Below, one piece after another: positions 2,874 to 24,150 of a DNA stretch of 37,177 bases. Every line of letters begins with the position of its first letter. The first letter of the stretch is position 1. The DNA is from Elusimicrobiota bacterium (GTDB lineage: Bacteria > Ratteibacteria > UBA8468 > B48-G9 > JAFGKM01). Below the pieces are notes generated by a model, which saw only the letters and a list, made by a program, of their open reading frames with translations, was not told where the DNA came from and did no database searches. The position numbers and the translations under genes are program-made. The DNA lies in the NCBI GenBank assembly GCA_012515635.1, contig JAAYXZ010000004.1, forward strand, positions 1 through 37,177, read 5' to 3'.

Positions 2874-3263
2874 TTATTCTATCCTTTCAGAATATGTTGC
2901 TGACTTTTGCTCGTTCTCCCACACAGTTACACACTTTACTTTTACAGGATATTTTTTTAATGCGCTCTGCATTTTCTTATATATATATAGGCAAATATTC
3001 TCAGATGTAGGATTTGCTTCTCTGAAAAACAACAGTGTATTTAAGTCGCGGTGGTCTAAAACACTTATAACTTTTTTGAGATGTTCCTTCAAGATAGTGA
3101 AATCTATAAGAAGCCCTTCACTGTCAAGTTCTGCTCCCCACACAACAATCTCCACCTTCCAGTTGTGTCCGTGAACCCTCTCGCATTTACCTTTATAGTT
3201 TTTTAAATGGTGGGCGGAAGAGAAGGAGCCCTGCACCTGAACTTCATATATTCCCTTGTTCAT
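2874..3263 (-). CDS. queD: 6-carboxy-5,6,7,8-tetrahydropterin synthase (PTPS family)
   Basis: 129-aa ORF with the CERVHGHNWKVEI (C-x3-HGH) motif typical of QueD/PTPS. ATGA overlap with the upstream amidase stop. Confidence 0.82.
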   Translation of the reverse strand: MNKGIYEVQVQGSFSSAHHLKNYKGKCERVHGHNWKVEIVVWGAELDSEGLLIDFTILKEHLKKVISVLDHRDLNTLLFFREANPTSENICLYIYKKMQSALKKYPVKVKCVTVWENEQKSATYSERIE

Positions 3264-4372
3264 AAGACATCTCTAAATTTAAGATAATCTAACACCCCGT
3301 TAGCCAACGCCTCTGCTATCGCCTGCCTCACCTCAATATCTCTTAAATTACACTCCATATTAGGATTGCACAAAAAACCTATTTCAGTTAAAACAGCAGG
3401 CATCGGGGTATATTTCAGAACATAAAAACTCCTTTTTTTGGTTCCTCTGTCAGGGGTTAATAACCTCTCTGCAAGACGCTCCTGAACAAAATCGGCAAGT
3501 ATTCTGCTCTCATCCACAGCGCTTGAGGTATTTAACTCTTCAAGCATTCTGGATACCGTGGAGGTCTCTTCGTCCTCTGTGTCCGCTTCTTCCGAATATG
3601 AGACAGCAGGAAGATATACTGCCTCTTCCTTAACTACTGAGTAATATGTTTCAAAACCGTCTGCGTCGGGTCTTCTGTCGCGGGAAGAGTTGGTATGCAC
3701 GCTGAAAAATACATCCGCTTGTATATCCTGCGCCATCTGAACCCGTTCCACCAAAGAGACAGCCACATCCTTCTCTCTTGTCATATAGATTTTCACACCT
3801 GAGTTGTGTCGTGACTCCTTCTTAAGATAGTCCCTTATTCTTCTCGCAATATCAAGGTTCACTTCTTTTTCTCTGAGTCCGTAATGACCAATCGCACCGG
3901 CATCGTTACCCCCATGCCCAGGGTCTATAAGTATAGTAAAGTTTTGGGGTTTAGCGCTTTTAACCGGTTTATTTTCCTTAAAAAACGGCTCTTGTGATAC
4001 ATGAGACGCAGGCGTGATACCAGAGAGGATGTCGTTAAAATTATCTACAGGTATAAATATCTCACCTTCCACCTCTTTCACTGGAACATCCAGCATAAAA
4101 ACCTGCTGTCCAATCATTACAGAGGTACTATTAACCTTAAACTTAATCTCTGTGCCTTGGTATCCTATAAAGACCCTGTCTTCAACATTGCCCCATGAAT
4201 CCTCAGCGCCGATAATTCTAAGTAACCCCTTGAGCGATATATACGCGGTATTCTCTATCAGGTAGGAGGGCAACTTTCTCTCCTTCATCTCTTCGCGTAT
4301 GTTTAAGGCAGATAAATAAAGCGGAAAGAGTAACGTCAACAAGAGAAAAGACCTAATTATTTTTTTTTTCAT
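3260..4372 (-). CDS. N-acetylmuramoyl-L-alanine amidase (Amidase_3) with signal peptide and N-terminal beta-rich targeting domain
   Basis: 370-aa ORF. N-terminal hydrophobic signal (LLLTLLFPLYLSA). ILIDPGHGGNDAGAIG and FFSVHTNS motifs of the zinc amidase_3 family. Confidence 0.85.
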   Translation of the reverse strand: MKKKIIRSFLLLTLLFPLYLSALNIREEMKERKLPSYLIENTAYISLKGLLRIIGAEDSWGNVEDRVFIGYQGTEIKFKVNSTSVMIGQQVFMLDVPVKEVEGEIFIPVDNFNDILSGITPASHVSQEPFFKENKPVKSAKPQNFTILIDPGHGGNDAGAIGHYGLREKEVNLDIARRIRDYLKKESRHNSGVKIYMTREKDVAVSLVERVQMAQDIQADVFFSVHTNSSRDRRPDADGFETYYSVVKEEAVYLPAVSYSEEADTEDEETSTVSRMLEELNTSSAVDESRILADFVQERLAERLLTPDRGTKKRSFYVLKYTPMPAVLTEIGFLCNPNMECNLRDIEVRQAIAEALANGVLDYLKFRDVL

Positions 4373-4507: not shown

Positions 4508-4867
4508 TGGTGGAGGCGGCGGGTACTGCCCCCGCGTCCAGAAAGGGCATCAATAAGGATTCTACCTGTATAGTCAGGAATTTTGTCCTTTGGAAAGCAT
4601 CTGCCTCCTGACACCATCTGCTCTCCGCAACCTTTTTATTGATTCCCTTCGGGGAAAAAGGTTAACCCCCGCAGAGAATTCCCTGTTTGCCGACCCGTTC
4701 CACAAAGAGCAGGGAACTCTTTTACGGACGGGTGACTGCATTATTTATGCAGCCAGAGCGTTTGCCGTATTGGCAGTTATTTGTTGCCGCGTTTTTAAGG
4801 AGTTCACGACGAACTCCACAGGCTACCTTATCCCTGCTTCCTTCCTGTCGAGACCTATATCGCCCCC
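4508..4867 (-). ncRNA. ssrA: tmRNA (SsrA), one-piece; tag reading frame 4745..4774 encodes ANTANALAA
   Basis: Minus strand starts 5' GGGGGCGAUAUAGGUCUCGACAGG and ends 3' GGACGCGGGGGCAGUACCCGCCGCCUCCACCA. The 7-bp acceptor stem has G3:U. The internal frame is GCC AAU ACG GCA AAC GCU CUG GCU GCA UAA, preceded by ACAAAUAACU (compare E. coli AAAAAUAGUC before its resume codon). smpB lies directly upstream on the same strand (62 nt gap). Confidence 0.85.
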
Positions 4868-4929
4868 ATTTGCCAAAAATATGAGCCTTTTCTGCTCACA
4901 TAAAATATACCTTAAAAACTCAACTACTG

Positions 4930-5367
4930 TCAACCCTGTTTCATTCTTCTCTCAATATCGCGCCGAACATCCCTCTCCTTTATCTTCTCCCTCTTATCAT
5001 ACAGTTTTTTACCTTTCGCCAACGCAATTTCAATCTTTAACAGCCCATTTTTATTGAAATATGCCGCCAAAGGGATAAGTGTCAGCCCCTTCTCCTCCAA
5101 TTTCCTGTTCAGCCGCTTTATCTCTGCCCTCCCAAGCAACAACTTTTTCTTTCTCATAGGGGCGGGCTTCTCTAAAGACGCAGGATACGGTGTTATATAG
5201 AAGTTATAGATGAAACACTCCCCTTCTTCAATACGCGCAAACGCTTCTTTTATACGACCTTTCCCTTCCCTTAACGATTTTACTTCCGACCCTTTCAATA
5301 TAATCCCGGCCTCTAACTTCTCCAATATTTCATAGTTGAAAAACGCCTTTTTGTTCTCAAATCGCAT
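4930..5367 (-). CDS. smpB: SsrA-binding protein
   Basis: MRFENKKAFFNYEILEKLEAGIILKGSEVKSLR... is a typical SmpB N-terminus. I place the start at the internal ATG 5367, since the 19 upstream codons of the track ORF look non-coding. TTGACA-17-TAACAT and AAGGA lie upstream. Confidence 0.9.
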   Translation of the reverse strand: MRFENKKAFFNYEILEKLEAGIILKGSEVKSLREGKGRIKEAFARIEEGECFIYNFYITPYPASLEKPAPMRKKKLLLGRAEIKRLNRKLEEKGLTLIPLAAYFNKNGLLKIEIALAKGKKLYDKREKIKERDVRRDIERRMKQG

Positions 5368-5437
5368 ATAATATCCTTGTGGTATTTTTAGTATTATGTT
5401 ATAGTTTTGGTAATATATTGTCAATGGGAGAGCTTGA

Positions 5438-6838
5438 TTGAAAGTTAAATTTTTAGGCGGGACACAAAATGTAACAGGCTCAAAGTTTCTGCTTGAAATA
5501 TCCGGCAGACGGCTTATGATTGACTGCGGATTATTTCAGGAAAGAGAGTTTAAGGACCGCAACTGGAAGCCCTTTCCTATTAATCCTTCATCAATAGATG
5601 CTATCATACTTACCCATGCGCATATAGACCATTGCGGATATCTGCCCAAAATAGTCAGTGATGGCTTCAAAGGAGATATCTTCTGCACCGAACCTACCGC
5701 AGAAATTGTTAAAATAGCGTTGCTTGATGCAGGAAAACTACAGGAAGAGGATGCCTCAAAGAAAAGAGCGCGGCACCTCGCTGAAGGGAGAACGCCGCCC
5801 TATCCTGTTATCCCTTTATATACTGCCGAGGATGCGAAATCCGTATCTCCTTTATTCAAAACATATCCCTATGAACAGCCGTTTGAACCCTTTGATGATG
5901 TCTCCGTATCCTTTCATGATGCAGGCCATATTCTGGGGTCTGCAATGATAAAAATCAAGGTAGGAAAGGAGAACGCAAAAACGCTTATCTTTTCCGGAGA
6001 CATAGGAAGATGGGACAAAGCCATTCTGAAAGACCCGTCTATATTCCAAGAAGCGGATATTGTCTTTGTGGAGTCCACATACGGAAACAAAAACCACGAT
6101 GGAGGATCAGAAGCGGCGGGAGAAGAACTTGCAAACATTATAAATCAAACAGTGCAGAGAAACGGGAATATAATCATCCCGACATTCGCTATAGAACGCG
6201 CACAGGAACTTATTTATTTCTTGAGCAAATTTCTTAAGGACAATGTTATTCCGCATATCCTCGTATTTGTTGACAGTCCTATGGCGATAGATGTTACAGA
6301 AATATTTAACAAATATCCTGAATATCTTGATACCAAGCCGGAGGAACTGATTAAAAAAGGCGCTTCCCCATTTGATTTTCCCCTTTTAAAACTCACGCGC
6401 TCTGTGGATGAATCTAAAAGCATCAACCATATAACCGGCTCTATAGCCGTTATGGCTGGCTCAGGCATGTGCACAGGGGGAAGAATCAAGCACCATCTTA
6501 TAACAAATATATCCCGAGAAGAATCTACAGTGGTCTTTGTGGGATATCAGGCAAAAGGAACTCTTGGGAGACACATACTCAGCAAACCGGAAAGAGTAAG
6601 AATTTTAGGAAGGGAATATCCTGTAAAAGCAGAGATTAGAAATATCAACGGGTTCTCTGCCCATGCAGACAAGTCAGAACTTTTACGATGGCTAAGCGGT
6701 TTCATAACACCGCCTAAAAAAATCTTTGTGATACACGGAGAAGAGGAAGTATCGCAAGAATTTGCTGAAGTTCTCAGGCAAAAAATGCCCGGAAGCGAAA
6801 TAATTATTCCAGAATACCTATCAGAACACAATATTTGA
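5438..6838 (+). CDS. beta-CASP / metallo-beta-lactamase-fold ribonuclease (CPSF73-like, COG1236-type)
   Basis: 466-aa ORF with the HAHIDHCGYLP (HxHxDH) motif and later SGDIG, ESTYG and FSAHAD motifs in beta-CASP order. TTG start preceded by GGGAGAG. Confidence 0.8.
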   Translation: MKVKFLGGTQNVTGSKFLLEISGRRLMIDCGLFQEREFKDRNWKPFPINPSSIDAIILTHAHIDHCGYLPKIVSDGFKGDIFCTEPTAEIVKIALLDAGKLQEEDASKKRARHLAEGRTPPYPVIPLYTAEDAKSVSPLFKTYPYEQPFEPFDDVSVSFHDAGHILGSAMIKIKVGKENAKTLIFSGDIGRWDKAILKDPSIFQEADIVFVESTYGNKNHDGGSEAAGEELANIINQTVQRNGNIIIPTFAIERAQELIYFLSKFLKDNVIPHILVFVDSPMAIDVTEIFNKYPEYLDTKPEELIKKGASPFDFPLLKLTRSVDESKSINHITGSIAVMAGSGMCTGGRIKHHLITNISREESTVVFVGYQAKGTLGRHILSKPERVRILGREYPVKAEIRNINGFSAHADKSELLRWLSGFITPPKKIFVIHGEEEVSQEFAEVLRQKMPGSEIIIPEYLSEHNI

Positions 6839-6866: not shown

Positions 6867-8867
6867 TTAAAATACTATCTGGAAAACTGTTTTAGCAATC
6901 AGGGCTACTGCTATTGAGACCATACCTATCAAGCCCATTCCGCAGGAATATCCTGCAAGTATTATCGGGGTATATCTATTCCAGTTAGGTCCCACTTTTT
7001 TAGCGAAATAAAACCTGCCGAGGAGTGCTCCGATAAACATAGGCAATGCCATATGCGGCAACATAGCAACTCCTCCTATTATCCCGTAAAACAAACCGAT
7101 AGGCGCCTTTAAAAGCAGAAGCAACGAATACAGAGCAACTCCAACAATAGAGGAATTTAAGATATACTTGAATTTTATCGCCTCTATCATCCAACTTCTC
7201 CCTCCATCTAAAGTGCTTGTCGCCCATAACGCCTGAAACATGGCATCCATAGGCCACATCTTCTGAGCGTAAGGATAGGTTGAAGAAGGAATCGGAGACA
7301 TCTTCCATATAATAGACCAAAAAAGAAAACTGCAGAACAACATAATAACCAATGATGTGAACTCCGCTTTATACCAGGAAGAAAACTTTGTTCTTGTCAG
7401 TTCAAGTTGCTTAAACTCCTGGGCTGTCACTCCGTGGTCAAAATACGGGACAGGGGCAAACCATATATCTACTCCTTTATGCCCGCTCAATATAAATGTT
7501 CCTTCCCTAACCATAGGGAAAGATATGCCTCCGGCAACACCTGTGATACCGAACATTCTTGCTGATGTATATGTAAGAAACGGAGTAAGAATAAAACCAA
7601 AAAACACAAACAACACTGTCGGGAAAGAAGGAACAAGAATTTTGCATATCACTATATAAATAATGGTTGAAAGCATCCATATCCCCATAGCGATATATAT
7701 CGGATAATCGCCCCTGCCTTCAGGAAGCTTCTCTTCAATGCGCGCCGGCTGCCCTATCACAACATCTTTCTTCTTTCTTCTGAAGGCCTTAAACATTATC
7801 ACTATACCGATAATAGCGACAATAGCGCCACCCGCTATAGTAGCATTAATCCAAAAATCAAGGTTTGTCGCTACATTAGCCGGTATAACGGTCATACCCG
7901 GCTGCCAGTTTTTTATAATCCCTGCCTTGTAAAGAATAGGGTTGCCGATTGTCCTTGTAAGCACCGCCCCTATAAAAGAACCTGTCACTACCCAGAAAGC
8001 GAGAACAAATCCTGTCAATAATATACCTAACTCTGTCATAAAACCCAACATTGAGGAAGGAAGAATATCTCCCATCTTTGAAGTAAAGTCCACCCATGGT
8101 ATCGGCAAAACCTGAAACGGCTTTGTCATCAACAACCCCGTAACCGTCGGTATTACCACATAAAAAGCCCCGAAAATCACTCCTATCATTGCCGATATAC
8201 TGAACACCCTCCATCTCCAGGTCTCCTGTTTGCCGCTTACTTCTGCAAGAGCGACAGCGCCCTCTGCCGCAACAGAGGCGAGAGGGAAAGGCAGTTTTTC
8301 CTTATCGCTGGTTATCCGAAACATCGTATATCCAAGTGTGAATTTGTTTATTTTGAAAAGGACGTTATGAATTATAAGCAACAGTATTGGTATCAACCAT
8401 ACGCGGCTAAGAAAGGTTCTCTTCAAAAGCGCTTCAGAGTTTGCGGGAGGCATCGCCCATAAAGGCATATGTTCGTGGAGTTTGAATGACTGCGCATAAG
8501 GGGACTGAACAAGATACTGTCTCCAAATCAAATCACTAAATGCCCCGCCCTGCAATGTAAGACCTGCCGTTCCAAAGATAAGCCCTGCGCTTACCAGAGA
8601 TGCGGCAAGCATATATATGATGTAAACCTCCTGCTTCTTCAACTCAATAAAAGACCTTTTTGCTATCTCAACAAGCAGTATCACCGTAACCCATTGGGCG
8701 GCTCCCGCTATGCCGCCGCCTGTCATAAGCCCCAAATATATGGCGCCGGGAAGCATAATAAAACCGATAAAGAGAGCTGCTATTATTGTCCTAACATTAA
8801 ACCCTTCCTGAAACGGCTCCATCCTTCCCGGCTCAAAATGCATCTCCGCTCTTTTTTCTTCCGTCAT
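6867..8867 (-). CDS. 666-aa polytopic membrane protein, OPT-superfamily-like (putative peptide/solute transporter); last gene of the 13990->6867 operon
   Basis: Hydrophobic segments run through the whole length. The N-terminal NVRTIIAALFIGFIMLPGAIYLGLMTGG and the KLPFPLASVAAEGAVALAE segment resemble OPT-family motifs (xLTxRAxxxG...YxGL and LxFPSGTATAE). AAGGAAG SD lies 5 nt upstream. The function call is weak. Confidence 0.5.
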   Translation of the reverse strand: MTEEKRAEMHFEPGRMEPFQEGFNVRTIIAALFIGFIMLPGAIYLGLMTGGGIAGAAQWVTVILLVEIAKRSFIELKKQEVYIIYMLAASLVSAGLIFGTAGLTLQGGAFSDLIWRQYLVQSPYAQSFKLHEHMPLWAMPPANSEALLKRTFLSRVWLIPILLLIIHNVLFKINKFTLGYTMFRITSDKEKLPFPLASVAAEGAVALAEVSGKQETWRWRVFSISAMIGVIFGAFYVVIPTVTGLLMTKPFQVLPIPWVDFTSKMGDILPSSMLGFMTELGILLTGFVLAFWVVTGSFIGAVLTRTIGNPILYKAGIIKNWQPGMTVIPANVATNLDFWINATIAGGAIVAIIGIVIMFKAFRRKKKDVVIGQPARIEEKLPEGRGDYPIYIAMGIWMLSTIIYIVICKILVPSFPTVLFVFFGFILTPFLTYTSARMFGITGVAGGISFPMVREGTFILSGHKGVDIWFAPVPYFDHGVTAQEFKQLELTRTKFSSWYKAEFTSLVIMLFCSFLFWSIIWKMSPIPSSTYPYAQKMWPMDAMFQALWATSTLDGGRSWMIEAIKFKYILNSSIVGVALYSLLLLLKAPIGLFYGIIGGVAMLPHMALPMFIGALLGRFYFAKKVGPNWNRYTPIILAGYSCGMGLIGMVSIAVALIAKTVFQIVF

Positions 8868-8914
8868 TGTTCTTCCTTTGTAAATATTGTTTCGTTGCTC
8901 TCTGCTTGCTTATC

Positions 8915-11900
8915 TTATGCAAGATTCAGGGATGTTTTGCCCTGTGTTGCATAATCCTGTTTTACATCACCGCTTAAGGTTCTCCAGATAAGAAACTGTT
9001 TTCTTATACCATCAATAAATCTTCTGTTAAGACGTTTCCAGTCCGTAGATTCCCCACTGCTTCTTGCCATCAGCAGATTGATGGTATAAAACTCATGCTC
9101 GCCCATCGGCTCCATTACTACGTTGAAATATTGGCTCACACCCAAATCAAAAGGAGCCAGCCAGACCTCTGTCTTTATCGTATATTTATTCTTATCGGAG
9201 GAGAGTGTTTCGTGAGAAAAAGTAGCGCCTTTTGTATAAAAATTTCCTAAAGAGACATCCCGATAAGAATTAAAGTAGTCCGACAAAAATGTGGTAAGAC
9301 CGATAACTTCGGCTTCTGCCACAGTAAAAGGAAACTCAAACTCCCATTTATCCCCTTCCGGTTCCGGAAGTATCCATTTTCTTGTAACATCAGGCACAGC
9401 CATCTGTGCCGCTTTTTTAGCAGGATAAAGAGTTGAGAGTATCACTGTAATAAATATTATAATGGTAGCAAATACAGCCGACAGAGAGGAATAGTTTAAT
9501 ACCAACCCTTTTAACATATCTGTCATCATAAGCACCCTAACCACTACCTGCCCTAAAAGATAACCCGCAACAGCACCCATCACAGCATATACCATTGACT
9601 CTGCAAGAAAAAGAGATGAAATATGAGAAGGGGCAAGACCGACAGCGCTATATGTTCCTATCTCCCTGATTCTCTCATACACCGCACCAAGCATCGTGTT
9701 CAAAACTATCATAGCAGCGATAAGAATGGGGATTATCAAACTGCTTATCCCTGAAAAAGACGTAAGCCCCATACTGCTGTACACAAATGTTTTATCTTTA
9801 AGCCCGGCAAAGACAATAACAGCAAGTTTAGAGATAAATTTTTCTACAAGACCCTTACCGTCAAGGTCCTCATTAAACCTTACAGCGATGGACTGAAGCG
9901 TCCCTTTCATATTCATAAGCGTCTCGTAAGGAACTATAGCAATATTTTCAGATTCCGCATGGACAAAAGATTCTAATTTTACCTGCGATGAAAAAATCTG
10001 CGCAGACCTTGCCAATCTAACCTTTAACAACTCCCTTTCAGGAAGCACTGAAAAGTCCACAGGAGTTACACGCTCATTATCCAGGTCCCTTACTTCATTA
10101 AGCGCCTTCTCATCAAAAATACCGTTAAAAATAAATTCCTTGCCATATATCATTATCTCCGCTCTCCCTATATCCGCATCAGTCAAGCGAAGTTCTGACG
10201 CTGTCTTCTTTGAAAGCAAAACCGTGCTTTCAAAAGGATATTTAAACCATTCTCCCTTTACCACTGCGTCCTTTACAGGGATAAACTCCTGCGGAGAAAA
10301 CCCAAGAAGCCCTGCCGTGTTCGCAACATTTTTCCCATACCTTATCTCAATAGATGTCCTATTGCCTAACTCCTCAAGAATAAACCATGCCCTCGGAACA
10401 ATAACGCCTTGACCGGAAAACTCGCTATCAACATAATCAAACGCTGTGTCCATAAGGGGAGCCCATGAACGGTCCCTAAGCAAAATACCCTGATATGCCG
10501 GCTTATACGGTTGCATAATTTGATTATATTTCATATACGATTTTATTGAAGTGAACGAAAGCACCGTAAAGGTAAGAAGCACCAGTGTAATGGCTGTAAG
10601 TATTGTTCTTGTAGGTCTTCTCTTCATATTGGCAACTCCAAGAGAAAACGCGGTTGCTGTCGCAGTAACTCTGCCCACATCTGTCTCGTACACCCCTGAA
10701 GACGCTGTTTTTAACTGTTTCATCTGCCCTTCAAATTTTGAGGCAATTATTGACAGCACTATCAAAGAAAGCGCAAGAACTATGAAAGAAAGCAGAATGA
10801 CTTCAGGGGCATTGGTCAGTTTAAAGGCGGGGTGAACCATACGCATTATCCAATATATTACTATAAAGATACCGACGGTTCCCGCTATCCGTTGCTCAAG
10901 CTTTGTAAAACTAAACAAAAGCCGCTCTCCGAAAAAGGCAAATGGCAGAAGCAGGATAAAATAGAATATCAGTCCTTTAACAACATCATTGACCGTGTTT
11001 TTTACATCGGGGTATGCGCGAGATTCTACTGCCTGAGATTGCCTTGAATATTTCAAAAAATCATACCACTCTTTTTTCTCTCTCGCTTCTTCCGCTTTTA
11101 GCAGTAATTGACCGGATTCATTCTGAAGTTCTGCAAGACGTTCATTTTTTATTCCATACTGTTCAAAATTCTCTTTTCTGTATGCATCCAGAATTATCAT
11201 ATCCTTTGCTGCCTGATAGGGTGTATTGTGTATCATCGGCATCTTATCCATTTCAAAACCGACACCCTCGGACTCTGTTTTTCCCCCTTTCTCTGAATTC
11301 AAAAGCAAGAGACGCTTCCCTAACGGACCTGCCTGTCCAAGCACCTTAACCCTGATATGCGGTCTTGCGAACACACATCCCAATGGCTCAGAATATGAAC
11401 TCCACCGATAAGGAATAGAGTCAGGGTATTGTAAATAGTACCCATATTCGCTTGGAACGCTATTGGCCATATCAAGAACCTCTATCTTGTCCAGTTGAAC
11501 AAGATACTGCGGGTCTATCAGCCCTGTAAGCGAGATGGTTTTGGAGTTAAACAACACTATCATCCAGTCCTTCTCCTTGTAGTCCATCACCAAATCAACA
11601 GGATACTGTCCCGCTCCGCCTACTCCAAGGTCGGGAGAGAGAACAATTTCACCGCTTTCCCCATCTACACCAAAAGCGGACATTGTTATAACATCTGATA
11701 AAGTGAACGAAGAAAACACTGCCTTTCCGCTCTCGTCAGTCATTCCCACAACAGTATTTCTTACGCCCATTGATGTCTTGTCAAATATCACTACTCTGGG
11801 ATGAATTCTCGGCACAACCAACGCGTTAACTACCGGTTCGCTCGGAATGAAACTCTTAGTAGGGTCAAATGTCACTATCTTGGTTTTAAGGGAATAAAGG

Positions 11901-13303
11901 TTATCCCTTATCTGTCCAAGCTCAATATCAGGGATTAAACCCGGGTCATTGACAGCGTTTTTAAAAATCTCTTTAATAAACCTTGATTGCCTCTCTATAT
12001 TATTAACATTTAGATTCACATAAGTGTCCGCAGGCGTATCCACGCGCCATCTTCCATCGTTAACCGTAACAAAAGAGAGCGCTGCGTTACCTGAAAGAAC
12101 AACCAGTTCTCCATCAGTTCGGATTTTTTCAGGGAAGAATGTTTGCCATATAATTCCTCTTTCAGGGCTTATTCCGTTCACCAGAGATGTCTCAGGATTG
12201 TATCCTAACTTTCTGCTTACCTGCTCTTTGTATTCCATAAACTTTCTGCCATAAGGGGCAAACACCCTCTGAGCATAAAAGTCATAAGAATTATGCCAGA
12301 TTCCCAAACTCTCTGACCCATCAGACAGGTCTAACCCTATAAAAAGTTTGGCATTAACAATATCCTTTTGGGGAATCCTTTTTTTGAAAAGCGGTTCCTG
12401 CCTTAAGTGTCTCTGTATAAAATCATTTATACCCGACATCTTTTGAAAATGCGCAGAGGTAGCAAGAAACATAACCGTCCTTGCAGGAGGGTTCTCTTTC
12501 AAGTGGTCTAAGACATCCAGAAGCACTGATATGCCTGCGGCAGACGACGCACTGCTTGCAATGGCAGGGACAACCCCTATGCCATCATAATATGCCTGTA
12601 ATATAATTATTTCTTCTTTCAGTTCGTTGTTTCTGCCCTCAATATAGCCAAAGATATTATAATCAGGGACGCTCTCCCAGTCCATTCTCCCGAACAGTTG
12701 AACATCTTTCTCATGATAAGCCAGATTAATAATTGTCTGGCTGTTTTTATGAGCATAAAACCGCGGGATATCAACAGGAATATCTACGAATTTCTGTTCC
12801 GCCTGAATACGGGTCAACGCCCCTGTCTCCGTAAAGATAAACGCCTTTACGCCTAACATGGAGAGTGTCTGCCATTTTGTTCCTGAATCAAAATCAAGGA
12901 CAAGGATGCTTCCCTCAATATCCTTACCGGTTAAATTTCTGAGGTCCCCATTCCCTCCATATATCAGTTTCCCTGTAATCCCTTCCGACGGCACTGTTGA
13001 TGTTCTTGCAAGGTTCGGCCAGAGACAATGGATATCTATTTTTGCGTTTTCGGCAACGATATAAGCGTATTTTTCTACAGGAACAACCGATTTGAACTCT
13101 TCTACATGGATGTTTTTAAGACCTGCTGCTCTGAACTTTGATTCTATAAAGTCCGCTGATTGCTTATGTCCTTCTGTTCCGGGCATACGGGAAGAGACAG
13201 AGGAAAAAAACTTGATATACTCGTTGACTCCTTCAGAGTATAGAAAAGATTGAAAAAAGAAGATGATGAAGATAGCAGGCAGATAAAAAAACCGTTTATT
13301 CAT
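8915..13303 (-). CDS. 1462-aa fusion: signal anchor, PA + M28-like (probably non-catalytic) ectodomain, about 350 aa of beta-rich and helical ectodomain, 3 TM, then a MacB/FtsX-type permease unit (TM, periplasmic domain, FtsX 3 TM) and a C-terminal domain of about 170 aa of unknown function
   Basis: N-terminus MNKRFFYLPAIFIIFFFQSFLYS. MPGTEGHKQSADFIESKFRAAGL is an M28-type N-terminal helix. KDIEGSILVLDFDSGTKWQTLSMLGVKAFIF is PA-domain-like. NIFGYIEGR...IIILQAYYDGIGVVPAIASSASSAAGISVLLDV...VMFLATSAHF occupies the M28 core positions. KRRPTRTILTAITLVLLTFTVLSF is a typical FtsX-family TM1. YERIREIGTYSAVGLAPSHISSLFLAESMVYAVMGAVAGYLLG is the FtsX-domain signature. AGGGAG SD. The start overlaps the stop of the TPR gene. 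Confidence 0.7.
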   Translation of the reverse strand: MNKRFFYLPAIFIIFFFQSFLYSEGVNEYIKFFSSVSSRMPGTEGHKQSADFIESKFRAAGLKNIHVEEFKSVVPVEKYAYIVAENAKIDIHCLWPNLARTSTVPSEGITGKLIYGGNGDLRNLTGKDIEGSILVLDFDSGTKWQTLSMLGVKAFIFTETGALTRIQAEQKFVDIPVDIPRFYAHKNSQTIINLAYHEKDVQLFGRMDWESVPDYNIFGYIEGRNNELKEEIIILQAYYDGIGVVPAIASSASSAAGISVLLDVLDHLKENPPARTVMFLATSAHFQKMSGINDFIQRHLRQEPLFKKRIPQKDIVNAKLFIGLDLSDGSESLGIWHNSYDFYAQRVFAPYGRKFMEYKEQVSRKLGYNPETSLVNGISPERGIIWQTFFPEKIRTDGELVVLSGNAALSFVTVNDGRWRVDTPADTYVNLNVNNIERQSRFIKEIFKNAVNDPGLIPDIELGQIRDNLYSLKTKIVTFDPTKSFIPSEPVVNALVVPRIHPRVVIFDKTSMGVRNTVVGMTDESGKAVFSSFTLSDVITMSAFGVDGESGEIVLSPDLGVGGAGQYPVDLVMDYKEKDWMIVLFNSKTISLTGLIDPQYLVQLDKIEVLDMANSVPSEYGYYLQYPDSIPYRWSSYSEPLGCVFARPHIRVKVLGQAGPLGKRLLLLNSEKGGKTESEGVGFEMDKMPMIHNTPYQAAKDMIILDAYRKENFEQYGIKNERLAELQNESGQLLLKAEEAREKKEWYDFLKYSRQSQAVESRAYPDVKNTVNDVVKGLIFYFILLLPFAFFGERLLFSFTKLEQRIAGTVGIFIVIYWIMRMVHPAFKLTNAPEVILLSFIVLALSLIVLSIIASKFEGQMKQLKTASSGVYETDVGRVTATATAFSLGVANMKRRPTRTILTAITLVLLTFTVLSFTSIKSYMKYNQIMQPYKPAYQGILLRDRSWAPLMDTAFDYVDSEFSGQGVIVPRAWFILEELGNRTSIEIRYGKNVANTAGLLGFSPQEFIPVKDAVVKGEWFKYPFESTVLLSKKTASELRLTDADIGRAEIMIYGKEFIFNGIFDEKALNEVRDLDNERVTPVDFSVLPERELLKVRLARSAQIFSSQVKLESFVHAESENIAIVPYETLMNMKGTLQSIAVRFNEDLDGKGLVEKFISKLAVIVFAGLKDKTFVYSSMGLTSFSGISSLIIPILIAAMIVLNTMLGAVYERIREIGTYSAVGLAPSHISSLFLAESMVYAVMGAVAGYLLGQVVVRVLMMTDMLKGLVLNYSSLSAVFATIIIFITVILSTLYPAKKAAQMAVPDVTRKWILPEPEGDKWEFEFPFTVAEAEVIGLTTFLSDYFNSYRDVSLGNFYTKGATFSHETLSSDKNKYTIKTEVWLAPFDLGVSQYFNVVMEPMGEHEFYTINLLMARSSGESTDWKRLNRRFIDGIRKQFLIWRTLSGDVKQDYATQGKTSLNLA

Positions 13304-13814
13304 CTCTTAACTCCCTTAATTTTGTCCACGCCCTTCTTGAACCGGGGTTTACATTCACCTCGCTTACATACTCTCTTTTTGCAGCCAATATATTCCCTTC
13401 CGCTTCATACATCAACCCTTTCAGATAATGGGCATCACGATAGTATTCATTCATCTTTAAGACCCTATCCGCCAACTCCCTTGCTGTAAAAAAATCATCC
13501 TTATAAAAACTTATAAGAGCAAAGTCAAAAGAGAGATTAACATTGTTTGGAAAATAAATCAACCCTGTTTTAACCCATTTTTCTGCCTCATCAAGTTGAT
13601 TTTTTATTATATATGACATTACTATTTTTTCATACGGTTCCGCCGTTTGCCCATACTTTAAGGCCTTTGTCCATACCTCTATTGACTTATCTATTTCACC
13701 TGTGGAGAAATATGTATCGCCCTCTTTTATAAGATTTCGCGCTAAAGAAACATTAGGATTCACAGAACACCCCGACGCAAGAAACACTATTAGAACCAGA
13801 GACAATAATCTCAT
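13296..13814 (-). CDS. TPR-repeat lipoprotein
   Basis: MRLLSLVLIVFLASGC has a lipobox (LASG|C). TPR-like helices follow (IEVWTKALKYGQTAEPYEKI..., YRDAHYLKGLMYEAEGN). I start it at ATG 13814. The longer track ORF adds 52 non-protein-like residues ahead of a perfect signal peptide. Confidence 0.75.
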   Translation of the reverse strand: MRLLSLVLIVFLASGCSVNPNVSLARNLIKEGDTYFSTGEIDKSIEVWTKALKYGQTAEPYEKIVMSYIIKNQLDEAEKWVKTGLIYFPNNVNLSFDFALISFYKDDFFTARELADRVLKMNEYYRDAHYLKGLMYEAEGNILAAKREYVSEVNVNPGSRRAWTKLRELRDE

Positions 13815-13990
13815 TTTGAGATACCCCGTATTCTTTTCCAACGTCTTATAAATATCCATATAAGCAAAACAATGGAGATAGCCATAAGAATTTTGGATAA
13901 GGTTGTTTCTTTGTGTAAAACAGCAGGCCAGAGAGTAAAGATAGAAAGAATTATTGCTAAATCCTCCCAAAAAGGTGTTTTTTTATTCAT
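13811..13990 (-). CDS. 59-aa two-TM microprotein (hypothetical), first gene of the operon
   Basis: MNKKTPFWEDLAIILSIFTLWPAVLHKETTLSKILMAISIVLLIWIFIRRWKRIRGISK has two clear hydrophobic helices and a basic tail. Its TGA stop overlaps the ATG of the TPR lipoprotein gene (ATGA). TATAAT (14004..13999) lies 8 nt upstream of the ATG, and there is no SD. Confidence 0.5.
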   Translation of the reverse strand: MNKKTPFWEDLAIILSIFTLWPAVLHKETTLSKILMAISIVLLIWIFIRRWKRIRGISK

Positions 13991-14122
13991 AATCAAAGAT
14001 TATAATTACGGAAAACTAATTTAGCGGTTTCACTTGTCCGCCACAACCATAGTCATTCATCCGCACCGCCAAAACATGCGCAGAATCCGCTTTATCCGAA
14101 CCTCCTCCTCAAAAAATTGTAA

Positions 14123-14204
14123 TGCCGGGAGGGGGATTTGAACCCCCACGGCTTACGCCATACGCCCCTCAAACGTACGTGTCTGCCAATTCCACCATCC
14201 CGGC
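14123..14204 (-). tRNA. tRNA-Leu (anticodon GAG), no encoded CCA
   Basis: Folded by hand. Acceptor GCCGGGA/TCCCGGC. Anticodon stem TACGT/GCGTA with loop TTGAGGG. Long variable arm TGGCGTAAGCCGT. T-arm GGGGG-TTCAAAT-CCCCC. Discriminator A. A T-run follows the 3' end. Confidence 0.85.
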
Positions 14205-16702: not shown

Positions 16703-16731
16703 TTGACAGTAAACTTTTATAACGGTATAAT
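16703..16731 (+). promoter_or_regulatory. consensus sigma70 promoter upstream of pal (TTGACA-17-TATAAT)
   Basis: TTGACA at 16703..16708 and TATAAT at 16726..16731. AGGAGG at 16747..16752. ATG at 16757. Confidence 0.6.
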
Positions 16732-16756
16732 TTTGGAAAAGATAACAGGAGGCAAT

Positions 16757-17353
16757 ATGAAACTATTTAGAGTGGCTTTGGTGTGTGTGTTGTTTGGACT
16801 TCTTGCAGGATGTCAGACCGCAAAGAAACAGCATATAGTAGAAAAAGATTCTGCTTCAACTCTTGTAACGCCGGGCGAAGACGCTATTGAAGAAACAACC
16901 GAAGGCAAGGCATCAGAAGAAGATATAGCAAAAGCGATAAAAGATGAGCCCATCCCCGCAACAAGAATCCCGGAAGATAGCCATTTTATAGCGCCTGCTG
17001 AAATTAGTGAAGAGATGGCACAGATATTTAAGAATATCCCCTTTGACTTTGATTCATACGCTATCCAACCCAACGCAAGACCGATTCTCAACACCATTGG
17101 AAAATACCTGTTAGAAAATGCTGAGGTAATAGTCATGATTGAAGGACACTGCGATGAACGCGGAACAAGAGAATATAACCTTGTGCTGGGCGAACAAAGA
17201 GCCCTAAGCGTAAGAAGATTTTTAGTTTCACTGGGCGTTGCATCAGACAGGTTATACACCGTCAGTTATGGGAAGGACAAACCTCTGGATACAGCAAGCA
17301 ATGAAGATGCATGGGCTAAAAACAGAAGGGCAGAGTTCAAGATAGCAAAATAA
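16757..17353 (+). CDS. pal: peptidoglycan-associated lipoprotein (OmpA-like C-terminal domain)
   Basis: MKLFRVALVCVLFGLLAGC contains a lipobox. An acidic linker follows. FDFDSYAIQP...IEGHCDERGTREYNLVLGEQRA...NRRAEFKI is the canonical Pal/OmpA_C motif. The start is set at the internal ATG behind AGGAGG. Confidence 0.88.
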   Translation: MKLFRVALVCVLFGLLAGCQTAKKQHIVEKDSASTLVTPGEDAIEETTEGKASEEDIAKAIKDEPIPATRIPEDSHFIAPAEISEEMAQIFKNIPFDFDSYAIQPNARPILNTIGKYLLENAEVIVMIEGHCDERGTREYNLVLGEQRALSVRRFLVSLGVASDRLYTVSYGKDKPLDTASNEDAWAKNRRAEFKIAK

Positions 17354-17355
17354 AA

Positions 17356-18147
17356 ATGAATAGGTTCATTTTAATAGGTTGCGGATTGCTTTTAGCGCTA
17401 TCCGGATGTATTGCCACACAAACAGATGTGGGCGTTGTCCAGGAAAAGGTCTCTTATGTTGAAGAGGACCTCTATTCTACTACCAAAGCGCTCGTTAAGC
17501 GTATGGATACCATTGAAGAAAACAATAAGAAGAGTTTTTCATCTCTCTCTACAAGGGTGGACAACCTTGAGGCCCAACGCGCCATACTGGCTGACGAGAT
17601 AACGAAGTTAAGCGCTGAAATTAAAGAAGTTTCCGGAAAGATAGATGAACTCAACTATGCCTATAACACGCAGTTAAAGGAAGGGCAGGAGACCGCCCAG
17701 AGCAAAGAATTTGAATTGCGACGCGATATGGAAGGATTGAAAAAAACATATACGGACATTATCACATCCATCTCAACATTGAACCAAAATCTTGCCGCGA
17801 TGCAGAATGATATCTTTACCATTAACAAAGCGCAGATATCTATCGGAGAGGGTCTCAACACAACATCAAATGACATACAGGAATTGACAGATAAACAAAC
17901 CAATCTGGAATCAAAGATAGACGATACCATTCAGGTGTTTCTCAACGAACTCACAAGACAAGAGAGTGAACTCTATTACTTGAAACATCAGGCAGAGGAC
18001 AAAAAACCCAAGACCTATATCGTGAAAAGCGGGGACTCTCTCGGAAAAATTGCGGAGCAATTCAGAACAACAATAAGTGAAATCAAAAAAACCAATAATC
18101 TGAAGAGTGATATTGTGTATATAGGGCAGAAACTCACTATACCTTAA
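17356..18147 (+). CDS. lipoprotein with a long coiled-coil region and a C-terminal LysM domain
   Basis: MNRFILIGCGLLLALSGC contains a lipobox. About 180 aa are heptad-rich (E/K/Q/L-rich). The C-terminal YIVKSGDSLGKIAEQFRTTISEIKKTNNLKSDIVYIGQKLTIP is a LysM motif. It starts 2 nt after the pal stop. Confidence 0.75.
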   Translation: MNRFILIGCGLLLALSGCIATQTDVGVVQEKVSYVEEDLYSTTKALVKRMDTIEENNKKSFSSLSTRVDNLEAQRAILADEITKLSAEIKEVSGKIDELNYAYNTQLKEGQETAQSKEFELRRDMEGLKKTYTDIITSISTLNQNLAAMQNDIFTINKAQISIGEGLNTTSNDIQELTDKQTNLESKIDDTIQVFLNELTRQESELYYLKHQAEDKKPKTYIVKSGDSLGKIAEQFRTTISEIKKTNNLKSDIVYIGQKLTIP

Positions 18148-18267
18148 CAATGCTCTAACCTGCCATATATGTTATCCCCAAAATACAACCATACATAACT
18201 TTACAATAGTGGTGGACAGGTCTTTCCTGAGAATAGCCCTGTGTGGGAAGGAATACAAAAAAAAGAG

Positions 18268-18339
18268 CGCCCCCAGCCGGATTCGAACCGGCCCGCCCAC
18301 CTTGAAAGAGTGGTGACCTATCCACTAGTCGATGGGGGC
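18268..18339 (-). tRNA. tRNA-Glu (anticodon UUC), no encoded CCA
   Basis: Folded by hand. Acceptor GCCCCCA/TGGGGGC. D-arm GACT-AGTGGATA-GGTC. Anticodon arm CCACT-CTTTCAA-GGTGG. T-arm GCCGG-TTCGAAT-CCGGC. Discriminator G. 72 nt. A T-run follows. Confidence 0.85.
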
Positions 18340-18351
18340 ATAAGAAGCTTT

Positions 18352-18381
18352 ATTATATACTCTTTTCACTCCTTCTGTCAA
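18352..18381 (-). promoter_or_regulatory. consensus promoter for tRNA-Glu (TTGACA-18-TATAAT)
   Basis: Minus strand reads TTGACA gaaggagtgaaaagagta TATAAT aaagcttcttat GCCCCC (mature 5' end of the tRNA). Confidence 0.55.
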
Positions 18382-18625
18382 AACCTATGCTCGCTCAAAC
18401 GATTATTTGACAATAATTGAGGGAGAAGCATAAAATAATAGGGACTCTTAAAATTAAACCGCTATATGAATAAAGAGTTCAAAGAGAAGGTTCATCCGTC
18501 TGGCTTACGCATATACATAGGCGGTCACTCTTTCAAACAAAGAGCAAATATTAACAGGCAATAGCAGTGCTGCTATCCTTAAAGGAGACAGGAGTTAAGT
18601 TGGTTGTGTTCAACTTATTATTACT

Positions 18626-19906
18626 ATGTGTTTTTATCTTTTCATCTACAATATTTTGCTTTTATTGTCGCTTTTGTTATCTTTGCCTTTTATATGGAAA
18701 AAGATAAAACCTGATACGGAGTTCCCTTCGGGATTCAAAGAACGGCTTGGGATATACGACAAAACAACGACAGAAAAACTTAAAAAACAGAAAAATATAT
18801 GGATACATACGGTATCCATCGGCGAGTTTCTCTCCATAACACCTCTTATAAAAAAGATACAGGAAGAGTATGAAAACAACATAGTGGTTACCTTTGCCAC
18901 AAAGACAGGCAGACGTGTTGCCAAGCAAAAAATTGGAAATGTTGTATATCTGTTCTTCCCTATAGACCTATATCCTGTGATGAGTAATGCTATAAAAAGA
19001 ATTAACCCTGAACTTATCGTTATCGTAGAGACAGAACTCTGGGCGAACCTTTTACATATAGCGCGCAGACATAAAATACCTGTGGTGTTGATAAACGGCA
19101 GGCTATCTCCTTTCTCCTATTCAAAATATAAAAAATTCAGGTTCTTCTCAAAGAGAGTTCTGCCTTTGTTTTCCTCCATTACAATGAGGTCGGAAAATGA
19201 GGCGGACCAACTTATTTCCTTAGGCGCTGAAAGAAAAAATATACAGGTAGTGGGAAGCATGAAGTTTGACCTTGCTTACGAGATGAGCCAAAGAATCAAC
19301 GCTGATAAGGTAAAAGAATCTCTGGGAATAGAACAAAACAGGGAGATAGTGATATTCGGTTCGCTCCACACAGAAGAGGAAGAGCCAATCATTAATGTTG
19401 CAGAAAAACTGCTGAAACAATTTAAGGATTTATTAGTGGTAATCGTCCCCCGCTACCTTGATAAAACAGGAGTATTTCATATCTTGAACGGCAGAGAACT
19501 GAACTATATACGTAAAAGCGAAATGCCGAGTGATAAACAATATTCCATAATTGTTGTTGATACTTACGGCGATTTGAATAATTTTTATGCTATATCAGAG
19601 TTCGCATTTGTCGGCGGAAGTTTACACAGATGGGGCGGACAGAATCCTATTGAACCTCTCGCCTTCAAAAAAACCGTTCTTTTCGGTCCTTATCATTGGC
19701 ACTTCAAAGAGGAGTGGAGAAAGATAAAAGAGAGCGGGGGAATAGAGGTCTCCGATTATAATGAACTCTATAAAGAGTGTCTCCGTTTGATTAAAGACTC
19801 TGAGGAACGCAGACGGTTAGGAGACGCTGGTTATCAGGCACTCCTTAAAAATACGGGGGCAACAGAGCACAACCTTAAGGTTATGCTCCGATTCATCAGA
19901 CAGTAA
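18626..19906 (+). CDS. waaA: 3-deoxy-D-manno-octulosonic acid (Kdo) transferase
   Basis: 426-aa ORF with an N-terminal membrane anchor, the IWIHTVSIGEF motif (compare IWLHAVSVGE in WaaA) and C-terminal GT-B motifs (FVGGSL...GGQNPIEP). Confidence 0.87.
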   Translation: MCFYLFIYNILLLLSLLLSLPFIWKKIKPDTEFPSGFKERLGIYDKTTTEKLKKQKNIWIHTVSIGEFLSITPLIKKIQEEYENNIVVTFATKTGRRVAKQKIGNVVYLFFPIDLYPVMSNAIKRINPELIVIVETELWANLLHIARRHKIPVVLINGRLSPFSYSKYKKFRFFSKRVLPLFSSITMRSENEADQLISLGAERKNIQVVGSMKFDLAYEMSQRINADKVKESLGIEQNREIVIFGSLHTEEEEPIINVAEKLLKQFKDLLVVIVPRYLDKTGVFHILNGRELNYIRKSEMPSDKQYSIIVVDTYGDLNNFYAISEFAFVGGSLHRWGGQNPIEPLAFKKTVLFGPYHWHFKEEWRKIKESGGIEVSDYNELYKECLRLIKDSEERRRLGDAGYQALLKNTGATEHNLKVMLRFIRQ

Positions 19907-23702: not shown

Positions 23703-24150
23703 ATCTCCCTCTCTTAAAGTAATGGAAAAATATAATGGACACACCCACAACAATCAGTGTATCCGCAAAATTAAAGACGGGCCAGATATGAAAATTAATA
23801 AAATCAATTACTGCCCCTATCCTGATTCTATCTATAAGGTTTCCTATGATACCGCCTTCTATCAATCCCAGCGCAATAATAATCTGCTTATCCTTCACGT
23901 ATTCTTCAAGATACAGAAAAATCCCGACTGCGATAATGACAGAAGCGGCAATAATAATATTTTTTACGTTCAGATTATTGAGAAAACCGAAGCATATGCC
24001 CTTATTTCTGATAAGCGTAAGTGAAAAGTATCTAAATATAGATAAAGAACCGCTCTCTGATAAGAAACCCGCCACAAGATATTTAGAGAACTGGTCTATA
24101 AAGACGGAAAGAAAAACCGTTAAAAAAAACTGCCTGTGTCTATTTTCCAC
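23674..24150 (-). CDS. lspA: lipoprotein signal peptidase II
   Basis: 158-aa ORF with four TM segments. NKGICFGF, GGIIGNLIDR and VFNFADTLIVVG are LspA catalytic-Asp motifs. GTG start overlaps the upstream stop. Confidence 0.88.
   Translation of the reverse strand: MENRHRQFFLTVFLSVFIDQFSKYLVAGFLSESGSLSIFRYFSLTLIRNKGICFGFLNNLNVKNIIIAASVIIAVGIFLYLEEYVKDKQIIIALGLIEGGIIGNLIDRIRIGAVIDFINFHIWPVFNFADTLIVVGVSIIFFHYFKRGRYVSGVPADR

Follow-up and report, generated by a model that had tools for sequence, protein, structure and literature searches.

What do four genes that lie back to back on the minus strand of an Elusimicrobiota contig build together? The stretch in question, in the following called the window, covers 37,177 nucleotides (nt) of contig JAAYXZ010000004.1 (assembly GCA_012515635.1, placed by GTDB in Ratteibacteria). 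By calling of open reading frames (ORFs) and inspection of the sequence, its minus strand from 13990 to 6867 was found to hold four co-directional ORFs. A first, sequence-only reading had described them as a tightly coupled envelope unit, and the same coordinates, ORFs and junctions were recovered here. The four products, with lengths in amino acids (aa), are:

13811..13990, minus strand: membrane microprotein of 59 aa with an ATG start (ORF, ATGA overlap, hydropathy, conserved family)
13296..13814, minus strand: TPR protein of 172 aa with the lipobox LASGC (Pfam TPR_2/TPR_8 and sequence)
8915..13303, minus strand: giant protein of 1462 aa, ATG start at 13303
6867..8867, minus strand: OPT/YSL-fold polytopic membrane protein of 666 aa, in the following the OPT-like protein (Pfam OPT, AlphaFold2 (AF2), Foldseek)

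These four genes form one conserved module, with the giant protein, the OPT-fold protein and a TPR protein tethered to the membrane in the periplasm as its core. We consider it very probable that they act as one functional module, built on a mechanotransmission permease.

The junctions are tight throughout. The TGA of the microprotein gene lies within an ATGA overlap with the TPR gene (13814..13811), the TAA of the TPR gene ends at 13296, 8 nt into the giant ORF, and the giant and OPT-like genes are separated by a 47-nt spacer (8914..8868) that carries a Shine-Dalgarno (SD) sequence, AAGGAAG, 6 nt ahead of the ATG. Both overlaps and the gap with its SD had been listed before, and all could be found again. 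No terminator-like site was located within the operon junctions; in the region as a whole 7 were found against 5.9 expected from shuffles, thus without enrichment. Similarly, a promoter scan of the region gave no signal exceeding shuffles, and an Rfam scan for riboswitches returned tRNA and tmRNA only.

Important insight into the coherence of the unit comes from its relatives. Species-representative genomes were scanned, in which 568 giant loci were confirmed, and the operon recurs in hundreds of diderm bacteria that have not been cultivated; 84 loci were fetched, 74 of them with enough flank to judge the adjacency of the OPT-like gene. Full-length homologues of the giant protein range from 98% down to 38% identity, and the phyla as annotated are Omnitrophota, Ratteibacteria, TA06, WOR-3, Latescibacterota and Gemmatimonadota. 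The OPT-like gene lies immediately 3' of the giant gene in 58 of the 74 loci, in at least six phyla, with a median gap of 21 nt between giant stop and OPT-like start (n=59), and the TPR and giant genes overlap in 31 of 36 loci. The full order microprotein, TPR, giant, OPT-like is kept throughout the clade of the window (about 30 related loci), in line with the expectation that the four genes would recur in order in related genomes. TPR and/or OPT-like neighbours are retained even by variants of the giant protein with other domain contents: one of 2451 aa with LysM and NMB0315 domain I, one of 3053 aa with Big_5, and one of 2075 aa in which M28 is undetected. In the case of the M28-less variants P0290 and P0324, searches of the ectodomains against PDB sequences matched the FtsX part only. 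Judged by its conservation, the operon arrangement is far beyond chance, and the module appears to be a syntenic feature of the core genome, not an island.

These data bear directly on the simplest alternative, in which the OPT-like protein is a plain OPT peptide importer and the giant gene is adjacent by happenstance. NCBI names the protein 'OPT/YSL family transporter' or 'peptide transporter' (an identical copy is annotated in a Ca. Ratteibacteria metagenome-assembled genome), which would agree with such a view. However, adjacency, order and short gaps are kept from the 98% to the 38% homologues, across several phyla and in the variants of 2000-3000 aa; moreover, where the OPT-like gene is missing, a probable paralogue, DUF6785, adjoins the giant gene. 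We regard an accidental pairing as very unlikely. Chance neighbours as such were ruled out by the synteny and the short gaps across loci.

Some complete chromosomes of Latescibacterota have two paralogous giant loci each, namely OZ244744.1 (L046/L067), OZ250150.1 (L049/L064), OZ220733.1 (L055/L080) and OZ251458.1 (L060/L082). In these pairs one locus reads DUF6785, giant, OPT-like, and the other reads TPR, DUF6785, giant without an OPT-like gene. The latter type is often followed by a gene for an AdoMet-decarboxylase/spermidine-synthase fusion.

As the giant protein is the centre of the module, its parts were delimited one by one (all on the minus strand, with transmembrane abbreviated as TM):

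13235..13303, minus strand: residues 1-23, signal peptide or N-terminal anchor, poorly conserved (hydropathy)
11924..13234, minus strand: residues 24-460, PA-domain M28 aminopeptidase-like head, catalytically dead (Pfam, PDB profile, AF2, Foldseek)
11234..11923, minus strand: residues 461-690, beta-rich ectodomain region (AF2 secondary structure)
10985..11233, minus strand: residues 691-773, three long helices, a stalk towards the membrane (AF2; 27% invariant)
10736..10984, minus strand: residues 774-856, three extra TM helices before the FtsX module (hydropathy; 29% invariant)
9416..10735, minus strand: residues 857-1296, MacB/FtsX-type module (Pfam, NCBIfam, PDB, PADLOC)
8918..9415, minus strand: residues 1297-1462, family-specific cytoplasmic C-terminal domain (conserved family; 32% invariant)

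The head was identified at the level of sequence and of predicted fold. Pfam Peptidase_M28 matches residues 216-330 with 23.8 bits, above the cut-off, and a profile of 17 homologues compared with the PDB matched, over residues 18-311, YwaD/BSAP (1e-13), the transferrin receptor TfR1 and nicalin. An AF2 model of residues 1-775, built from 43 sequences (pLDDT 88.9, pTM 0.87), shows the PA-M28 head, the beta-rich region at about 461-690, for which the Pfam scan gave no match, and helices at 694-714, 721-742 and 746-772. In Foldseek searches this ectodomain model matched 2ek8, 6hc6 and 8acg at E 1e-24 to 1e-21, and the top matches 2ek8, 6hc6, PaAP, TfR and GCPII together span E 1e-24 to 1e-18.

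The catalytic site itself is gone. In the profile alignment to YwaD/BSAP, the zinc-ligand His is replaced by Tyr (HYD to YYD), and the Glu-Glu pair of catalytic residue and ligand has become His-Phe (AEE to SAHF). Where the bridging Asp is expected, the window has Ser, and homologues have Glu, Thr or Asp; the last two of the di-zinc ligand positions were judged by eye only. The replacements are fixed across the family (17-43 homologues). Because zinc-ligand and catalytic positions are replaced family-wide, the head is a pseudo-peptidase, as had been claimed from the sequence of the window, and the predicted PA-M28 fold agrees with this. An active membrane-anchored M28 aminopeptidase, digesting peptides for uptake by the OPT-like protein, would fit the above-threshold Pfam match and the name 'M28 family peptidase' given to some homologues, but the exchange of His for Tyr, of the unconserved bridging Asp for Ser, Glu or Thr, and of Glu-Glu for His-Phe is fixed across 17-43 homologues. 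We therefore give next to no probability to such an enzyme; activity of this type was ruled out by the zinc-ligand and catalytic replacements. Residues Y239, D240, T282, S283 and H285 of the head are invariant and may form another site. An inactive PA-M28 head carried by a stalk of helices resembles TfR, nicastrin and nicalin, and by analogy it may serve as a receptor or scaffold.

Below the stalk the giant protein is organized as a permease. The MacB/FtsX-type module comprises a cytoplasmic N-helix, TM1, a periplasmic domain of 262 aa, and TM2-4 with an ERIREIG coupling-helix motif. Pfam FtsX (PF02687) matches residues 1189-1301 with 50.5 bits against a cut-off of 25.5 (E 2.7e-13), which bears out the earlier claim that the large ectodomain sits on a MacB/FtsX module. 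The profile of 17 homologues matched MacB, YtrF, LolF and LolC in the PDB over residues 1124-1308, and the MacB, ADOP and LolC/LolE models of NCBIfam were matched only far below their cut-offs. From hydropathy, the chain runs through the N-terminal anchor, the extra TM helices at 774-856, a cytoplasmic linker, TM1 (900-918), the 262-aa loop, TM2-4 (TM2 at 1183-1201) and a tail of 165 aa. This predicted topology is self-consistent and would place head and periplasmic domain outside, and coupling helix and tail inside. For the loop between TM1 and TM2, PF12704 (MacB_PCD) is recorded in many homologues, and the protein of the window has no match to it at E<=0.1.

In MacB and LolCDE structures the coupling helix, with its ERxREIG-type motif, has an established role. 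In the giant protein this helix, between TM2 and TM3, reads YERIREIGTYSAVGLAP, with E1210, R1211, E1214, I1215 and G1216 invariant in 17 homologues. Conservation is concentrated in the membrane: 76% of the positions are invariant in TM1, 42% in TM2-4, 32% in the tail, 29% in the extra TM helices and 10-15% in the ectodomain. Neither the three additional TM helices nor the cytoplasmic domain conserved at the C-terminus had been noted in the sequence-only reading. The C-terminal domain forms 1425 clusters at 50% identity, and in full-length members it stands nearly always at the very C-terminus of proteins of 1450-3050 aa. It has no match in Pfam, NCBIfam, PADLOC or the PDB. Altogether, the giant protein is predicted to be a type VII (MacB/FtsX-type) ABC permease module that is extended at both ends.

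A different meaning for the membrane part is raised by PADLOC, where models PDLC01991 and PDLC01990 ('CARF_m8--CARF_LolE_TM' and 'CARF_Beta-galactosidase_LolE_TM') match the giant protein at E 5e-56 and 1.6e-23, over residues 775-1347. The CARF_m8 models reportedly stem from the 2020 CARF census of Makarova and colleagues. Taken at face value, the matches and the conserved cytoplasmic domain could speak for an anti-phage membrane effector regulated by cyclic oligonucleotides, in which the tail senses the second messenger and the membrane part damages or gates the membrane. However, the CARF_m8 match is carried by the TM/FtsX region alone (profile positions 79-547 of 810), and the C-terminal domain by itself matches no PADLOC model at E<=1 and no CARF-containing PDB chain. 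Furthermore, the pattern of this domain, read by eye, appears to be beta-alpha-beta4-alpha and not Rossmann-like, the window contains no cas, cyclase or other defence genes among its housekeeping neighbours, and the module behaves as a syntenic core-genome feature. A defence role of this type is extremely improbable. The CARF-type reading was ruled out when the PADLOC match was traced to the TM/FtsX module only. As the PADLOC models match the TM module strongly, relatives have been catalogued before.

A stand-alone ABC ATPase gene (ABC_tran) is co-directional with the cluster in 14 of the 84 loci, with LolD, MacB, YbbA, DevA and FtsE as best NCBIfam models; some of these loci have it as an orphan just upstream. 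In five loci (L033, L036, L038, L073, L076) the OPT-like gene is followed by a gene for an FtsX protein of 214-228 aa without periplasmic domain, a mini-FtsX, and then by the ATPase gene. Both the LolD-class ATPase and the mini-FtsX of these other lineages had escaped the earlier reading. Because the N-helix and the ERxREIG coupling helix are invariant and related clusters encode LolD-class ATPases, the giant protein would be a true type VII ABC permease. Other extras are also specific to certain lineages: a conserved protein of about 300 aa without Pfam match (F37) is encoded after the OPT-like gene in some loci, together with PqqD-like genes in 4-5 loci; genes for PqqD-type peptide chaperones occur in L001, L002, L073 and L076; long TPR proteins are found in some clusters; and HlyD-type adaptor genes stand just upstream in 8 Latescibacterota loci, with an FGE-sulfatase-domain gene. 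By tblastn, the 37-kb window contains no ABC ATPase, no mini-FtsX and no F37, and among the fetched loci of its own clade no ATPase gene adjoins the operon.

Such extras invite a comparison with exporters or extractors of the MacAB, Lol or DevCBA type. Here the giant protein and an ATPase would expel or extract a substrate of the periplasm or outer leaflet, be it lipid-linked, lipoprotein-like or a peptide product, in the direction of the outer membrane. Passage of this substrate through the inner membrane would be the task of the OPT-fold protein, and the TPR lipoprotein would act as partner on the outer side. The solved structures nearest to the TM module (MacB, LolC, LolF, YtrF), the LolD/MacB/DevA class of the ATPase, the HlyD-type membrane-fusion genes of the 8 Latescibacterota loci and the PqqD-like genes of 4 loci, which are typical of clusters for ribosomally synthesised and post-translationally modified peptides, are all in keeping with this. 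On the other hand, no gene for a membrane-fusion protein, outer-membrane factor or ATPase lies near the operon in the window or its clade, the LolC/LolE models, with cut-offs of 439-540, score no more than 12.9-15.8 bits, the OPT proteins that have been characterised import their substrates, and the cluster has no conserved precursor-peptide or biosynthetic genes. An exporter of this type is, on balance, unlikely.

The two smaller proteins could be described at the residue level. In the microprotein, a probable hairpin, hydropathy shows one strong hydrophobic segment at residues 30-48 and a weaker one at about 11-29; the two TM segments that had been ascribed to it are therefore likely rather than proven. 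Its family is well conserved, with the pattern KTPxWED..IFxLWP...RRxKR, and about 35 of the 84 loci gave a tblastn match to it (24 members from 23 loci were aligned). In the case of the TPR protein, the N-terminus MRLLSLVLIVFLASGC bears the lipobox, and the remainder is generic TPR (Pfam TPR_2, E 6.7e-10). Its gene lies upstream of the giant gene in 29 of 59 loci. The description of this protein as a TPR lipoprotein holds for the window and fails as a rule for the family: a lipobox is present in a subset only, and the other members carry a signal anchor without Cys. The TPR protein of the window is thus predicted to be a lipoprotein tether, anchored to the membrane in the periplasm.

Turning to the fourth gene, the assignment of its product to OPT comes from the fold more than from the profile. 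Pfam OPT (PF03169) scores 25.7 bits against a gathering cut-off of 25.8, and 13 of 30 homologues match it at E<=0.01, the best at 6.7e-10. With the AF2 model (pLDDT 78.8, pTM 0.83), Foldseek found the barley transporter YS1 (HvYS1, 7wsr_A) at E 2.2e-11, probability 1.00 and TM-scores of 0.64/0.71, the next-best TM-score being below 0.15; the two proteins share 14% identity. The suggestion that the 666-aa protein is OPT-like is thereby confirmed at the fold level. Sequence searches of the PDB gave no match for the OPT-like protein or for the DUF6785 family.

This family leads to a further candidate component, which had been overlooked in the sequence-only reading and is encoded about 16 kb away from the operon:

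30027..31952, minus strand: DUF6785+DUF6784 polytopic protein of 641 aa (Pfam)

The protein matches DUF6785 with 430.4 bits against a cut-off of 25 (E 1e-128) and DUF6784 with 95.1 bits against 26.4 (E 3e-27). In the window its gene belongs to a conserved string, rplM-HMGL-aconitase-amidase-DUF6785, unlinked from the operon. In other genomes the situation is different: a DUF6785/DUF6784 gene lies directly upstream of the giant gene in 33 of 59 loci (Latescibacterota, Gemmatimonadota), loci without an OPT-like gene nearly always have it, and in L029, L054 and L076 the DUF6785, TPR, giant and OPT-like genes occur together, in L029 and L076 also with the microprotein gene. Comparison of the OPT-like and DUF6785 families with hhalign gave an end-to-end collinear alignment (562 columns, E 3e-4, probability 39%; E 0.22 for a reversed-sequence control), which is suggestive of the DUF6785 protein being a remote paralogue of the OPT-like protein. 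In addition, a JGI metagenomic contig of 3.1 kb (L090, 3..3110) encodes in one ORF, P0331, the FtsX TM2-4 and C-terminal domain of a giant protein joined to DUF6785; the latter part is 32% identical to the DUF6785 protein of the window (E 3e-77). P0331 may be a Rosetta-stone fusion, and it is a single case. Overall, the DUF6785/DUF6784 protein is probably an unlinked fifth component in the window.

How could these parts work together? Type VII ABC permeases such as MacB, LolCDE and FtsEX pass ATP-driven movement to the periplasm and carry no substrate themselves. As the best explanation overall we tentatively favour a mechanotransmission complex, powered by ATP, that would act jointly with an OPT-fold partner on a peptide-like ligand in the periplasm. 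Firstly, the FtsX module of the giant protein would dock a LolD/MacB-class ATPase via its N-helix and the ERxREIG coupling helix. Secondly, ATP binding and hydrolysis would cause a conformational change across the membrane that moves the periplasmic domain and the head, as in MacB, LolCDE and FtsEX. The head would not be an enzyme but a receptor, in the manner of the transferrin receptor, nicastrin and nicalin, and its ligand would be located in the periplasm or at the cell surface. The highly conserved TM helices of the giant protein would contact the OPT-fold protein and/or its DUF6785 relative, and the OPT-fold protein would be the actual path through the inner membrane. Scaffolding and assembly would fall to the TPR lipoprotein and the microprotein. 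An intramembrane complex of this kind is proposed because the TM helices are extremely conserved, an OPT-fold protein is encoded next to the giant gene, and a fusion is known from one case. As substrate we prefer a peptide, or an envelope fragment with a peptide part, which would be imported via the OPT-fold partner; a peptide-like ligand is favoured because the head resembles an aminopeptidase, the partner has the OPT fold, and a PqqD gene is present in a few loci. To the specific mechanism, in which a ligand is captured in the periplasm and handed over to the OPT-fold permease, we give a rather low probability. A similar hand-over, or else an adhesion or remodelling device, had been put forward in the sequence-only reading, and both are speculative. 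In its widest form, the proposal would be a new class of envelope machine, in which a primary-active type VII mechanotransducer, with a dead-peptidase receptor head similar to the transferrin receptor or nicastrin, is physically coupled to one or two OPT-fold proteins that resemble secondary transporters (OPT-like and DUF6785), ATP-driven motion of the receptor gates or feeds a permease of another superfamily, and the C-terminal domain acts as a regulatory ligand sensor; this is possible, though rather unlikely as a whole.

Several points weigh against the ATP-driven peptide-handling complex. The dependence on ATP in the organism of the window would be an extrapolation, as no ATPase is encoded in the window or beside the operons of its clade. 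To our knowledge, the type VII ABC systems characterised so far all serve export, extraction or signalling, whereas import is the function of the characterised OPT proteins; transport could therefore run in either direction. Real M28 enzymes anchor peptides by a di-zinc site, which is lost in the head, and a peptide ligand hence does not follow from its fold. The homology of the OPT-like and DUF6785 families, at a probability of 39%, is weak, and the P0331 fusion could be an artefact of assembly, sequencing or a frameshift. The PqqD genes (4 loci) and HlyD genes (8 loci) are lineage-specific and lead to different conclusions. Finally, the variant with LysM and an NMB0315-like domain hints at peptidoglycan rather than free peptides.

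This last variant is also an argument for a cell-wall remodelling regulator similar to FtsEX. Here the giant protein would be an FtsX transducer fused to its own activator: the stalk and the degenerate head would take the role of EnvC (a coiled coil with a degenerate LytM domain) or PcsB and turn peptidoglycan hydrolases on and off, and the OPT-fold partner would recycle the peptides set free. The FtsX module is present, the stalk with its dead peptidase-fold head would parallel the inactive LytM domain of EnvC, the 2451-aa variant adds LysM and NMB0315 domain I while its OPT-like neighbour is retained, and an Amidase_3 gene lies 3-9 kb off in the window and in close relatives. Conversely, the NCBIfam FtsX models are unmatched by the giant protein, no ftsE or hydrolase gene is consistently adjacent (the synteny of the amidase is limited to close relatives), LysM is found in a single variant only, and no known FtsEX system has an OPT-fold protein as its strict partner. 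We judge such a regulator to be improbable, and continue with the mechanotransmission complex that works on a peptide-like ligand.

The surroundings of the operon in the window were also described. The unit had been said to run from a T-run after tRNA-Leu to a convergent beta-CASP gene, and both borders were found again (tRNA at 14204..14123, gene at 5438..6838):

14123..14204, minus strand: tRNA-Leu(GAG), upstream neighbour of the operon (ARAGORN and Rfam)
5438..6838, plus strand: convergent beta-CASP/RMMBL gene, 3' flank of the operon

At the 5' flank the tRNA gene is followed by ACAATTTTTT, the T-run. The microprotein gene starts without an evident SD or -35 element, and 9 nt separate a TATAAT from its ATG; the gene may be co-transcribed with tRNA-Leu or have a leaderless start. 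In all loci of the window's clade that were checked (L003, L012, L017, L022, L031, L035, L042), tRNA-Leu(GAG) is co-directional and directly upstream of the microprotein gene, with spacers of 15 to ~430 nt. Beyond the beta-CASP gene, a tmRNA gene at 4508..4867 (minus strand; Rfam, 144 bits), unreported by ARAGORN, adjoins smpB (4930..5424); because of this tmRNA, the listed ORF at 4590..5057 (plus strand) is spurious. The Amidase_3 gene lies at 3260..4372. Further envelope genes are located nearby, at 16703..19906 and 22965..24150, and code for an OmpA-like protein, a coiled-coil LysM protein, a Kdo transferase, and lgt and lspA. Together with the Amidase_3 gene they indicate a diderm with a lipoprotein pathway, in agreement with the lipobox of the TPR protein.

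The phyla that carry the module (Omnitrophota, Ratteibacteria, Latescibacterota, Gemmatimonadota, TA06 and WOR-3) have almost no experimental envelope biology, the module is widespread in them, and the membrane core of the giant protein is among the most conserved sequences of their genomes. If the giant and OPT-fold proteins do form one complex, it would be the first MacB/FtsX-type mechanotransducer coupled to a protein of the OPT superfamily, and no earlier case would exist of bacteria that employ a PA-M28 pseudo-peptidase as receptor head. At the same time, the Pfam families DUF6785 and DUF6784 gain a genomic context. The analysis further suggests that the annotations 'M28 family peptidase', 'peptide transporter' and 'FtsX-like permease' are misleading if the genes are read singly.

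Finally, the module was compared with known systems. The sequence-only reading had held that the unit corresponds to no characterised system, and indeed the Pfam, NCBIfam and PADLOC scans of all four products returned generic domains only and assigned no named system. Literature searches on its domain families and on the CARF/LolE pairing likewise found no paper describing it.

For residues 1124-1303 of the giant protein, MacB is the best relative in the PDB and NCBIfam. The two proteins have in common an FtsX-type domain of four TM helices, an N-helix of amphipathic character and a coupling helix; the large periplasmic domain that follows TM1 in MacB has a putative counterpart in the 262-aa loop of the giant protein, and the ATPase of related clusters is of the MacB/LolD class. 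Unlike MacB, the giant protein has no fused N-terminal nucleotide-binding (ABC_tran) domain, and instead carries about 770 additional periplasmic residues, three extra TM helices, a C-terminal domain of 165 aa and an OPT-fold neighbour. In contrast to MacAB-TolC, there is no MacA or TolC partner and no HlyD-type gene in the window. LolCDE and LolF belong to the same permease superfamily, related clusters hold a LolD-like ATPase, and the combination of giant protein and mini-FtsX would resemble the asymmetric LolC/LolE pair. Nevertheless, the giant protein remains far below the NCBIfam cut-offs for LolC/LolE, with no evidence of a Hook, no link to LolA or LolB and an altogether different architecture.

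In the case of FtsEX with EnvC, PcsB or RipC, the likeness consists of an FtsX-type transducer, a helical stalk and a degenerate peptidase-fold domain, which in the giant protein are fused into one chain. Here, however, the degenerate domain has the M28/PA fold and not that of LytM or CHAP, and an OPT-fold partner is present; no match was obtained with FtsX_Gneg, FtsX_Gpos or FtsX_actino of NCBIfam, and no ftsE is adjacent. The library relatives closest to the extra TM helices and FtsX module are the PADLOC CARF_m8--CARF_LolE_TM models (E 5e-56), from which the giant protein differs in having no detectable CARF-like part and no defence context.

With OPT/YSL proteins (barley YS1, 7wsr) the OPT-like protein shares a predicted fold and weak but repeated Pfam OPT matches; its gene is always located beside one for a giant FtsX protein, and we know of no characterised OPT protein for which this is the case. 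TfR, GCPII, nicastrin and nicalin likewise use the PA-domain M28 fold as a membrane-tethered ectodomain, and TfR, nicastrin and nicalin have lost the catalytic metal site as the giant head has. Those proteins are eukaryotic and single-pass, whereas here, in bacteria, the head shares its chain with an eight-TM permease module of the ABC type. In conclusion, the comparison places the four genes, as predicted from their sequences, among the mechanotransmission systems of the type VII ABC kind, although their architecture and set of partners are without precedent.

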